DNA of 51,504 bases from Promethearchaeota archaeon (GCA_011364925.1 RDOA01000022.1:1-51504); one strand, 5' to 3'. Positions 8,970 through 38,977 are shown, counted from the first letter of the stretch. The notes: generated by a model from the sequence alone, not told the origin. Numbers and translations are program-made.

Positions 8970-9494
8970 CTAATCGAGAAGTTTTTGCTTAAACACTTCA
9001 ATTGTATCTGAAATTTCGTTTAATCGTACTGAAAACTCTTTAGGTTTTAGTTTTCTTAACTTTTCAAAGTTATTAATAATTTCCTTAAATTCGTTAATCC
9101 AAATTTTCATCAAAATCTCGCTTTCTTTCCCTTCAATTCTCCTATTAAGAATATTTGTAATGGATGAATTCATTTTATCCATCAACTTTTTTTCGTTAAT
9201 CGTATACGAGATTTTAAGGACATCCTGTTGAGTTTTGAGTTGTTGCATGTCCTCTTGCATCGTAGTTTTGTGTTGTAATAGTTCATCGTTAAATTTTTTA
9301 ATCATATCCATAATAATTTCTTCTTGAGTCTTTATGGTTTGTTCAATCCGCTCCTGGCTATATAAGATATCGCGTTTGATGGAGTCTATCTCTTCTTTAA
9401 TAAATTGAATCTCTTTCTCAGTGTTATTTACTTGATCAATTAAGATTTGAAAATCTTTAAGCGTTATTTCTTCAATTTTATCTTTTTTAGGGAT
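8970..9494 (-). CDS. Coiled-coil hypothetical protein, probable ATC start (174 aa)
   Basis: The track ORF (to 9311) stays open 61 more codons to ATC at 9494 (PKKDKIEEITLKDFQILIDQVNNTEKE...). Minus strand reads AAGGTGA-TAAGAA-ATC with an in-frame TAA two codons upstream. Confidence 0.7.
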   Translation of the reverse strand: MPKKDKIEEITLKDFQILIDQVNNTEKEIQFIKEEIDSIKRDILYSQERIEQTIKTQEEIIMDMIKKFNDELLQHKTTMQEDMQQLKTQQDVLKISYTINEKKLMDKMNSSITNILNRRIEGKESEILMKIWINEFKEIINNFEKLRKLKPKEFSVRLNEISDTIEVFKQKLLD

Positions 9495-9510
9495 TTCTTA
9501 TCACCTTAGA

Positions 9511-10479
9511 TTATTCCAGCTCATTGGATTCTAATTCCAAAATTGAATCTAATTTTAATTCAAAATCTTTCTTCAGATTAGATAAATCTTCCAAGGATTT
9601 ATCAATACTATTGATTAAAGTGTCGATAGGAGCTTTTTTTAGATTTGATATCAGATCGGAAATAATTGATAGGTTGTTCTTGAAGGCTATGATTATATTT
9701 TCTTTAATCAGATTCTTATCGATATTGTTCTCTTGAATTTGTTTTAGTTTTTTAATTTCTTTAAGAAGTAATGGTTCGCTATTAGAAACCTGAACATTTT
9801 TTTTAACAATCGTTGGAATAATTTTATTGTAGAGACTATTCGGATCAATATTATCTAAATTTATAATTAATTTCTCTAAATCTTCTTTAGATTTGCCAAT
9901 AGATTCCAAGAATTTGTTAGAAATGCCAACAAATTGTTGTATTTTACTGTCCTTTTCTATTTTTTTCAGGAAATTGAATATAGCTAATGAAAATACTTCA
10001 GAAATATTATCTTGAGTCTTAGCTGAAACAAATATAATCGGGATTCCTTCAATTTGATATTTCCGTATATTATTTAGAAGTATTTCTGAGTCTTCTGGTT
10101 TTATTAAATCAGATTTATTCCCTATTAGATAAGTTATGCAATCTGGAGAATATTGGGTTAAATTTTTCATGTATGTGTGGAGCAGTTCTTGTAATGTTTC
10201 TTTTGGATTTTTTAGGTCAAAAATTAGTAAAGCGGAATCTAAATTACTAAAGAAAACGGGATTCATTGGATTAAAACTTCTTTGACCTCCAATATCCCAA
10301 ATATTTAATCTAATATGATTCGAAGGCAATTTGTATTCTTTTCTTTGGATGTTACTGCCAATCGTAGGAACATACATCACTGGGAACTCTTTACCTAAAA
10401 TAGCATTAACTATCGATGTTTTACCAACGCCCCATTGTCCCATCATTGTAAGTTTAATATTGATTTCAGAGACAATCAT
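9511..10479 (-). CDS. Rab/Ras-like small GTPase with helical C-terminal extension
   Basis: G1 GQWGVGKT, G2 YVPTIG, G3 WDIGGQ, G4 GNKSD, G5 SAK; about 150 aa extra at the C-terminus. Confidence 0.92.
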   Translation of the reverse strand: MIVSEINIKLTMMGQWGVGKTSIVNAILGKEFPVMYVPTIGSNIQRKEYKLPSNHIRLNIWDIGGQRSFNPMNPVFFSNLDSALLIFDLKNPKETLQELLHTYMKNLTQYSPDCITYLIGNKSDLIKPEDSEILLNNIRKYQIEGIPIIFVSAKTQDNISEVFSLAIFNFLKKIEKDSKIQQFVGISNKFLESIGKSKEDLEKLIINLDNIDPNSLYNKIIPTIVKKNVQVSNSEPLLLKEIKKLKQIQENNIDKNLIKENIIIAFKNNLSIISDLISNLKKAPIDTLINSIDKSLEDLSNLKKDFELKLDSILELESNELE

Positions 10480-10602
10480 AGTCCGTCATTTGAAAAAAGA
10501 TAAATTAAATTTCCAGTGTATTAATTGTTAATTAATACTTTATCTATATAAATTTGCTTTAACTCTCGTCAGAATCAGTCACAACATGCATTAATTGACT
10601 CA

Positions 10603-11199
10603 TTAACTCATAGAATTTTCTTCTTTTTTATTTGCAAATTTCTTATAGGCGAACACAATCCTTTGTATCACTGTGATGTTTGTCCCAATAGCTAGGAATA
10701 CCATCGTCCAGTAAATTGCAGTAGGAAACCATAACTGGAATATCGAACCAATTAAAAGGATTGGGACTCTATCCGTTCTCTCCAGCAATCCAACGCCGTA
10801 CAAATTTGGCGTTCCTAAACTCTCAATTTTTGCTCGTGTGTATGATGTTAAAAAAGCTCCTGCAATCGTTATTAGACCAATGTATAAATCTGTGTAACCA
10901 CCAATTATAATACCTATAAAGATAAGATAATCTCCAATTCGATCTAATGTAGAATCTAAAAACGATCCCAATTTGGTCGGACCTTGGAGACGAGCAACTA
11001 CACCATCTAATTGGTCAAAAAACTCTACTAAAATTAAACTAATTATAATTAAAGACAAAAATTGAATAACAGAAAATAGGAACACACAAATCGCAAAACA
11101 TAGTCCTAAAATCGTCAATACATTTGCAGGTATTTTCTGCAATTTCTTTCCTAAAGGAAGTAGTAGTCTTTCTGAGTATTTTTTAACTCTTAGTAACAT
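10603..11199 (-). CDS. CDP-alcohol phosphatidyltransferase (archaetidylinositol-phosphate synthase-like)
   Basis: DQLDGVVAR...GSFLDSTLDRIGD signature, SYTRAKIE, GLLERTDR. Confidence 0.93.
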   Translation of the reverse strand: MLLRVKKYSERLLLPLGKKLQKIPANVLTILGLCFAICVFLFSVIQFLSLIIISLILVEFFDQLDGVVARLQGPTKLGSFLDSTLDRIGDYLIFIGIIIGGYTDLYIGLITIAGAFLTSYTRAKIESLGTPNLYGVGLLERTDRVPILLIGSIFQLWFPTAIYWTMVFLAIGTNITVIQRIVFAYKKFANKKEENSMS

Positions 11200-37175: not shown

Positions 37176-37322
37176 ACTTTCTTCTCACTCTTTCATTTAT
37201 TTTAGTATTTTCTAATTCACGTATTTATTTTATTTCGAATTTCATTAAAATAAGCTATCTGCTCTACAATATAAATCTTACTCATGCACCAATTAACAAA
37301 TTATTGAAGAAGTTAGATTTCG

Positions 37323-38111
37323 TTATTTGTTTAGTTTAATAAAATCTGATAGAGGATTGAAATATTCCTCTTCGAAAGCAAGGATATTATTATGTCCAGC
37401 ACCTTCGATTAATACAAATTTTTTGTCGATACCATCTGGCAAATTTTGATAAAGCAAGTTAGCTTCTGAAGAAGGTATTATCCAATCAAGAGTACCATGG
37501 ATAATCAATGTTGGCTTGGTAAACTTCTTTACTCTAGTATCGTTTGAATAGGGATTTAGTGATTCTGGTGTTAGGATTGGACTACTTATCCTAAAAAGGT
37601 TCACCATCATATTATAAGTACTAGCAAATCCACTTTCGAATATTATACCACGCAAATTAATGGGATTATTTGCTCCAATTTCGGCAGCACAGATACTCCC
37701 TAAAGACCTTCCTTGAACGAATAAAGAATCAATTAGATTCTTACTTTCCATCCATTTAGTGAATGCTGTGTAAATAGGCATCGCATCAGAGATTAAGCTA
37801 GAATAAAAGGGCTTCCCGGTGCTGAATCCGTATCCCCTAAAATCGACTACTGCTAAATTTACGCCACAATCATGAAACATCGGTGCTATGTATTGATAGT
37901 CTAAGGCAATTTCTCCGTTTCCATGAAACAACAATATTGTAGGAACATTTGTAGCGTTCTTAAAAAAGAATCCTCCAATCACAATCTTTTTGTTAATATG
38001 AAACTTAAGAATTTCGACATCTTGTTCTAAATTGTTAGGAATCGCCGTCTTTCGAGGATAAAAAACTACATTCGAAACTGTGGGATTATCAATCAGAGTG
38101 TGCTTTTCCAT
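37323..38111 (-). CDS. Alpha/beta hydrolase (ABHD13/ABHD17-like)
   Basis: FHGNGE, DFRGYGFSTG, GRSLGS, IIHGTLD, GAGHNN. Confidence 0.92.
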   Translation of the reverse strand: MEKHTLIDNPTVSNVVFYPRKTAIPNNLEQDVEILKFHINKKIVIGGFFFKNATNVPTILLFHGNGEIALDYQYIAPMFHDCGVNLAVVDFRGYGFSTGKPFYSSLISDAMPIYTAFTKWMESKNLIDSLFVQGRSLGSICAAEIGANNPINLRGIIFESGFASTYNMMVNLFRISSPILTPESLNPYSNDTRVKKFTKPTLIIHGTLDWIIPSSEANLLYQNLPDGIDKKFVLIEGAGHNNILAFEEEYFNPLSDFIKLNK

Positions 38112-38305
38112 AATTGTTGTTTAAATACGAATGTATCTTTTTAAATTCTTCTTTTCTGCGTTGAAAAAGACATTTTTATTAATTTTAAAAATTTATAAGA
38201 TTTGACATAATATTGTAAATACACTCATAAGTAAAGCTAAGACTTAATTATGAGGAGTATTATTATTTAAACATAAATTTCTATATCGATAATAAGTGAC
38301 ATAGC

Positions 38306-38977
38306 ATTCTTTTCGAGAGATATGATATTCTAACTCACCGGATTAATCGACATTATTTAAGAGTTATTGGAATTCTTATTCCTATTTTTACTATAATTAT
38401 CTCTGTCAGTATTTACGCAACAAACGATGCTTCTTTCAGCTTTCTAACCCACTATTTAAGCAATTTAGGAGGAGGTCCCAGTGGATCTGGCATTATCTTC
38501 AATGTCGGAATCATGATTTCAGGCGTGTTAATGATATTTTTTTTCCTTAATTTAAGCGCGTATTTACGTAGAAAAAAAGCGAACGTGTTTCTCATCTACC
38601 TTGCGTTTATCCCTAGCTTAATATCATCGATTGGGACTTTCTTTACGGGTTTTTTTCCGTACACTTCTACCCAAGTATTGCATAACCTTTCAGCGAGCAC
38701 TTTTTTCATGGGAGGATTTGCGTATTGCATTTTGTATGGATTCTGTGAATGGATAACTAAAGGAATATCTAAAAGGCAAGCTATTTCAGGATTTATTGTT
38801 GCTTTATTCTTCCTTCTTTTCATCATATTTACAGCAATAAATTATTATAATCCTGCGTTAGCTTTAGAAGAATCTCATCTTACTGAATGGTTACTCATTT
38901 GTGTTTTGATGTTTTGGGTTATTCAACACGAAGCTATTATGACTTTGGATAAGAAAAGGGCTTCAAAAAAAGATTAA
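38306..38977 (+). CDS. DUF998-like membrane protein, probable ATT start
   Basis: The track ORF from 38513 is open 69 codons further upstream, through a TM helix and the family-type HYLSNLG...IIFNVG motif, to AAGTGA-CATAGC-ATT; no in-frame ATG/GTG/TTG in the extension. Confidence 0.72.
   Translation: MLFERYDILTHRINRHYLRVIGILIPIFTIIISVSIYATNDASFSFLTHYLSNLGGGPSGSGIIFNVGIMISGVLMIFFFLNLSAYLRRKKANVFLIYLAFIPSLISSIGTFFTGFFPYTSTQVLHNLSASTFFMGGFAYCILYGFCEWITKGISKRQAISGFIVALFFLLFIIFTAINYYNPALALEESHLTEWLLICVLMFWVIQHEAIMTLDKKRASKKD

Follow-up and report, generated by a model that had tools for sequence, protein, structure and literature searches.

Evidence for near-cognate AUU and AUC start codons placed by Shine-Dalgarno motifs in an Asgard archaeon

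Three genes, here called A, B and C, on a 51.5-kb contig from a Promethearchaeota archaeon (RDOA01000022.1:1-51504 of assembly GCA_011364925.1; the whole contig of 51,504 nucleotides is the window referred to below) very probably begin translation at ATC or ATT codons, and we conclude with the same confidence that near-cognate initiation, at codons one base off AUG, occurs throughout the lineage. The source genome is a metagenome-derived assembly of 3.9 Mb with 33% GC, and its nearest named relatives are Promethearchaeota (Lokiarchaeia-type Asgard). The original prediction had drawn attention to three open extensions, each with a ribosome-binding motif, a spacer of 6 nucleotides and an ATC or ATT (at 9494 and 24013 on the minus strand and 38306 on the plus strand). 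All three layouts were found as described, as were the two canonical starts used for comparison (15602, plus strand, 5-nucleotide spacer; 30816, minus strand, 7-nucleotide spacer).

Gene A (8970-9494, minus strand) encodes a coiled-coil-like protein of 174 amino acids that belongs to no known family. Its ATC at 9494, to which our start-site model gives a posterior close to certainty, lies 6 nucleotides after the motif AAGGTGA (9501-9507, minus strand), and this motif is complementary to the 3' end of the 16S rRNA, read in the source genome as GGATCACCTCC. The correct Shine-Dalgarno consensus is therefore GGAGGTGA. In-frame stops, TGA then TAA, stand ahead of gene A (9500-9498, minus strand). 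Gene B (23795-24013, minus strand) encodes 72 amino acids with a weak helix-turn-helix likeness, a weak lead to its fold. Its ATT at 24013 follows the motif GGAGGTAA (24020-24027, minus strand) by 6 nucleotides, and the TAA of the motif is the in-frame stop. Gene C (38306-38977, plus strand) encodes a membrane protein of 223 amino acids (DUF998/Frag1 family). Its motif is weak (AAGTGA, 38294-38299, plus strand), again 6 nucleotides before the ATT at 38306, with the motif's TGA as the in-frame stop. The first ATG, GTG or TTG lies 61, 22 and 69 codons downstream of the proposed starts of genes A, B and C, in frames of 174, 72 and 223 codons, and each gene has needed coding sequence above it. The protein of gene C, for example, matches Pfam families from residues 17 and 33 onward, and the first ATG comes only at codon 70.

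Orthologs of the three genes support these starts. Searches of 80 relatives recovered orthologs in which the open frames are intact and almost constant in length, and the extensions are kept rather than absent. (For the later ortholog and start tests, genes were filtered first because antisense shadow frames had contaminated the raw pairwise tally.) The codon at the start site is ATG or a single-base neighbour of it in all 64 sequences, which come from 17-29 relatives per gene. Gene A has ATT in 18, ATC in 6, ATG in 2, ATA in 2 and GTG in 1 of 29 sequences, gene B has ATG in 6, ACG in 6, ATT in 5 and ATA in 1 of 18, and gene C has ATT in 17 of 17 full-length sequences. Thus, ATG stands at the same position in orthologs of genes A and B, as the original prediction had proposed to check, and gene C is uninformative on this point. 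The six threonine codons at the gene B site are all ACG, which makes up only 14% of the threonine codons in the genome, and ordinary amino-acid exchange is therefore not the source of the variation. ATG and ACG occur side by side within each of two distinct clades in the tree of gene B. Near-cognate starts extend to ACG, and probably also to CTG.

The surroundings of the codon are conserved as well. Spacing from motif to codon is 5-6 nucleotides in orthologs, rarely 7; GGTG is held at 5-6 nucleotides in almost all gene A orthologs, and GTGA at 6 nucleotides in all 17 gene C sequences. Relative to the Shine-Dalgarno element, a codon one base off AUG thus lies at the distance expected of a start. 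In four gene A orthologs, the ATH codon (H being A, C or T) comes immediately after a stop, so no upstream start is usable there. The ratio of nonsynonymous to synonymous differences (pN/pS) in extension versus body is 0.37 versus 0.24, 0.20 versus 0.19 and 0.32 versus 0.37 in the three genes, and by this measure the extensions evolve as gene bodies do, under purifying selection. At the level of sequence comparison, the codon position, its limitation to ATG and one-base neighbours, and coding selection on the extensions are established.

These data bear on two other explanations. The source genome is a metagenome assembly, and the missing canonical starts could be assembly errors or marks of decayed genes. 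However, the same non-ATG codon recurs in 12-26 independent assemblies per gene, in intact frames under purifying selection. Alternatively, translation could start further upstream and pass the stop by readthrough (selenocysteine or suppression), or by frameshifting or splicing. A TGA stands above gene C in 17 of 17 sequences, some with an ATG directly ahead of it, but that ATG is absent from the source genome and many others. Genes A and B have TAA, TAG, TGA or no stop above them across orthologs, and their orthologs carry ATG at precisely the contested codon. The pattern of stop-codon recoding, one conserved stop with a conserved upstream start, was not found. The ortholog codons and the selection on the extensions therefore exclude these explanations for practical purposes; we consider an upstream start extremely improbable, and error or decay even more so.

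The in-frame stop, which the original prediction took as part of a shared architecture, does not belong to it. The stop is lost in 12 of the 64 sequences (9 of 29 for gene A and 3 of 18 for gene B, which have a spacer of 5 or 7 nucleotides or a different motif), yet it is present in all six ATG-starting gene B orthologs. A GGTGA or GGTAA motif followed by 6 nucleotides places its own TGA or TAA in frame. The stop is a by-product and an ascertainment effect that exposed these cases, and it is not needed by the mechanism. The fixed 6-nucleotide spacer holds for all three window genes but not as a rule, as orthologs also have 5 (rarely 7) nucleotides without the stop.

The motif itself matters. 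In genes without a canonical start by coding signal, in-frame sites 4-9 nucleotides past a motif match of at least 5 bases are ATH in 18 of 44 cases (41%), compared to 2 of 84 (2.4%) for out-of-frame sites at the same motif distance in the same genes (p=3e-8). This enrichment above chance, and the retention of the motif at 5-7 nucleotides in orthologs, bear out the predicted positioning by a Shine-Dalgarno element and establish, again by sequence, dependence on the motif. A strong motif precedes 20 of 40 genes without a canonical start versus 439 of 1745 others (p=0.0008). It also accompanies 51% of confident ATH starts, 17% of ATG starts and 36-43% of TTG and GTG starts, in part as a consequence of how the calls are made. 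Most simply, the motif would compensate for a weak codon. Simple genome-wide counts of motif plus codon were too noisy to discriminate.

Near-cognate starts are found throughout the genome. A start-site model in which all 58 non-canonical codons were set equal at the outset converged, over 2477 genes, on ATG (68.2%), TTG (11.0%), ATT (5.7%), GTG (3.8%), ATA (3.0%), ATC (1.6%), ACG (0.6%) and CTG (0.45%), with every other non-canonical codon at 0.9% or less. Planted false starts were recovered as themselves and not as ATH. Three stricter counts set lower bounds. Coding signal alone gives 40 of 1785 genes (2%) without a canonical start, and in 87 of 2477 genes (3.5%) the start is called with confidence and no canonical codon lies within 10 codons of it. 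In a synteny comparison from which gene C itself had been filtered out, 7 of 124 genes (5.6%) have no canonical start above conserved sequence, and the value is 6-8% in two congeners. We take the share of genes with near-cognate starts as 4-10%. The three or four such starts among about 45 window genes match the genome-wide rate, so the window is typical. Several housekeeping genes, identified by sequence, are on the near-cognate list: uS4 (ATC), uL15 (ATA), RadA, TFB, PheT and GatB (CTG). Routine AUH initiation in the lineage, as originally proposed, is thus supported by the start model, the synteny test and the motif-linked enrichment.

Several points weigh against this conclusion. The control with planted starts drew on genes preselected as canonical. 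The figure of 10% genome-wide is a model estimate, and strict counts give 2-6%. Spacing is 5-7 nucleotides in 37 of 41 ATH starts versus 98 of 186 ATG starts, but the narrower range is partly ascertainment because a good motif makes a site more likely to be called as a start. For gene C, no close ortholog carries ATG at this position. Lastly, no change in the machinery that would explain tolerance was found in aIF1, the initiator tRNA, the compared 16S segments or uS9.

The use of ATH starts appears to be strongest in the family of the source genome and low-level elsewhere. Among genes with a strong motif, 37 of 376 have an ATH start in the source genome. In 400-kb samples, the counts are 0 of 45 in the sister family (p=0.02), 2 of 131 in another class (p=0.001) and 3 of 59 in a further family of the same class (p=0.33), each compared to the source genome. 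Paired homology counts between lineages point in the same direction, with small numbers. The lineage comparison is suggestive only, because the start model on samples of 260-450 kb carries 1-3% noise per codon and underestimates (5-7% in samples of the source genome, 3% in two congeners).

In this family of Lokiarchaeia, Shine-Dalgarno pairing very probably holds the small ribosomal subunit such that a codon 5-7 nucleotides downstream occupies the P site. The ordinary initiator Met-tRNA would then tolerate a single mismatch to this codon, in most cases in the third position (AUU > AUA > AUC, also ACG and CUG), and initiation would be less efficient than at AUG. The majority of near-cognate starts are probably weak ones that drifted toward AT, are tolerated and interchange freely with ATG, as in gene B, and some, such as those of gene C and the aIF1 gene, are kept fixed.

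The initiation machinery looks ordinary. The genome encodes aIF1, which has a zinc knuckle and the basic loop RRKWGR (residues per PMC6237735), and the relaxed aIF1 discrimination suggested earlier remains conjecture. The initiator tRNA is standard (A1-U72, CAU anticodon, three G-C pairs). Loss of start-codon proofreading was rejected, as the basic loop is intact, the three G-C pairs are present and uS9 ends in arginine. A mitochondrial-type code with AUA as methionine was also rejected; internal isoleucine columns mix ATT, ATC and ATA, and internal AUA is still isoleucine. The initiator tRNA gene (L334, minus strand) seemingly has two introns outside the anticodon loop, and intron number varies among relatives; ARAGORN recovers few tRNAs here because of introns, so a second initiator of unusual type is conceivable. 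There are two aIF1A genes in the source genome (L355 and L359) versus one in each of four other genomes, with contamination (4.2%) a possible cause.

Third-position mismatches could instead be made acceptable, as in mitochondria, by a change peculiar to the lineage that affects the ribosome or the initiator tRNA (in P-site proteins, or in rRNA or anticodon modification). The tail of uS9 (L352:1501-1881, minus strand) is KSFR in every genome of the source family read and in family f5, and KSYR in most other Asgard genomes read, and the habit is apparently weaker in the two outgroup genomes with 0 of 45 and 2 of 131. The uS9 tail residue influences start selection in yeast, but the position is partly variable (PMC6344880) and tyrosine to phenylalanine is conservative. 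Furthermore, the third outgroup, at 3 of 59, has KSYR, the initiator tRNA gene is unchanged, and 16S segments around 530, 790, 926, 966, 1338 and 1400 have no family-specific change in their conserved cores. tRNA and rRNA modifications are unreadable from DNA. We regard such a change as quite unlikely, and the KSFR tail as a weak lead to the cause of tolerance.

Regulation through aIF1 is another possibility, and among the components of the machinery the aIF1 gene provides the strongest lead. The aIF1 gene of the source genome lies outside the window (L161:10208-10537, plus strand) and starts with ATT. Across the family the start is ATT at 70 loci, ATC at 3 and ATG at none, with no canonical start at any of the 73. 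It sits behind a broken motif with a 9-nucleotide spacer, and flanking genes keep ATG in 73-100% of loci. ATA is the likely aIF1 start in two further families. By analogy with the bacterial infC precedent (PMC5499595), aIF1 could use a deliberately poor AUU start to hold down its own production, in the manner of IF3 and eIF1, with the AUH genes as a regulon that follows the level of aIF1. This layer would be compatible with routine near-cognate initiation as an addition to it. However, gene C, which has no link to initiation, is just as invariant, the start of gene B interchanges with ATG in a way not expected of a regulon member, and the AUH genes have no evident common function. In addition, the 73 loci are related rather than independent, and aIF1 starts with ATG, TTG or GTG in most genomes of three other families (the sister family included) and most other classes. 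Of the translational-control layer raised by the original prediction, there remains a hint in the start codon of aIF1 itself. We suspect that this AUU may set overall stringency by feedback, at somewhat less than an even chance. The full scheme with a regulon is more doubtful. It is unlikely though conceivable that such feedback tunes the AUH and ACG genes jointly; it would then be an archaeal link between the autoregulation of bacterial IF3 and that of eukaryotic eIF1, and would foreshadow non-AUG control in eukaryotes.

Further observations concern aIF1 itself. The source-genome aIF1 alone has methionine where the relatives examined have cysteine in the CASGG motif. Four genomes of the genus (L098, L108, L109 and L110) have a second, divergent aIF1 copy with GAGGTGA, 8 nucleotides and ATT, and here too the expected position has no canonical start. 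The subclade of the source genome has a lower SUI1 score, which could not be traced to the basic loop.

The window holds a fourth candidate, a gene with a helix-turn-helix domain (2699-3394, minus strand) and a possible CTG start at 3394, which the model assigns with a posterior close to certainty. The CTG and the residues after it are kept in one ortholog, and both sequences have a TTG eight codons lower as an alternative start. Open 5' extensions at 17930 (minus strand) and 18622 (plus strand) were ruled out as non-canonical starts, as their orthologs start at ATG.

Gene A begins 16 nucleotides past the stop of a Ras/Roc-family small GTPase gene directly upstream (9511-10479, minus strand). 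The two genes probably form an operon, and translational coupling is possible. A second Ras/Arf-like small GTPase gene lies nearby (12919-14415, minus strand). Most orthologs of gene A are longer by about 50 residues (216-248 open codons versus 175), and the N-terminus of gene A matches these longer orthologs at two places, suggesting that it has lost an internal repeat that they contain. In the genomes searched, gene B occurs only in the source genome's family, and a paralog usually accompanies it. A conserved non-coding element of about 115 nucleotides (24611-24735, read on the minus strand) lies in the gap ahead of gene B. It has a terminal stem in which one C is bulged, a pair of inner hairpins and a near-invariant A-rich stretch. 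At least 11 relatives have it at the corresponding position, and a second copy lies on another contig. Within the family, 44 of 48 genomes carry the element, in 1-8 copies each, compared to 1 of 32 other genomes, and it has no Rfam match.

Gene callers truncate such genes, as had been anticipated. The public database has gene A as 113 amino acids (versus 174), gene B as 50 (versus 72) and an ortholog of gene C as 154, and aIF1 of the source genome is deposited as 69 instead of 109 amino acids. NCBI records of some genomes already place methionine at the ATT or ATC codon of aIF1. In each genome, about 100-250 proteins may be absent from databases or present there in shortened form, with consequences for inventories of domains and for the constructs used in structural work on Asgard proteins. 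In this family, which belongs to the archaea most closely related to eukaryotes, AUU appears to be a commoner start codon than GUG, and the genes of the family offer natural leaders for testing the start-codon judgement of aIF1.

A 2020 review gives AUG, GUG and UUG as the archaeal start codons (PMC7531240). We found only one published Asgard ATT start and no genome-wide report of such a habit in Asgard archaea, in a literature search that covered subscription journals thinly. The published case is atubA of Kariarchaeaceae, for which an ATT start was proposed and called 'rare' (PMC13394414). Like the genes described here, atubA is an Asgard gene with ATT behind a likely ribosome-binding site and is truncated in GenBank, but it is a single gene from another Asgard class and no genome-wide claim was made. 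In ribosome profiling of Haloferax volcanii, about 30% of putative alternative sites were near-cognate and were set aside by the authors (PMC7261190). Archaeal ribosomes can thus gather at near-cognate codons; unlike those alternative sites, the codons described here are conserved and are the only starts that main genes such as uS4, uL15, RadA, TFB and aIF1 have.

In bacteria, AUU and AUC starts are known in infC and in E. coli pcnB, and make up 0.004-0.024% of annotated starts (PMC5499595). As in infC and pcnB, the near-cognate codon here is AUU or AUC placed by a Shine-Dalgarno element, and the gene of the fidelity factor itself has such a start (aIF1 here, IF3 there). In contrast to the two genes of E. 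coli, several percent of genes are involved, the machinery is archaeal, and feedback of the infC type would be hypothetical. Mitochondria also use AUH starts. AUU and AUC starts are reported to be frequent in the annotation of Mycoplasma gallisepticum (cited in PMC5499595). Both resemble the present case in using AUH starts across a lineage with an AT-rich genome. However, theirs are reduced genomes, whereas the archaeal genome described here has 3.9 Mb, encodes aIF1, aIF1A and an initiator tRNA of standard type, and still uses internal AUA for isoleucine.

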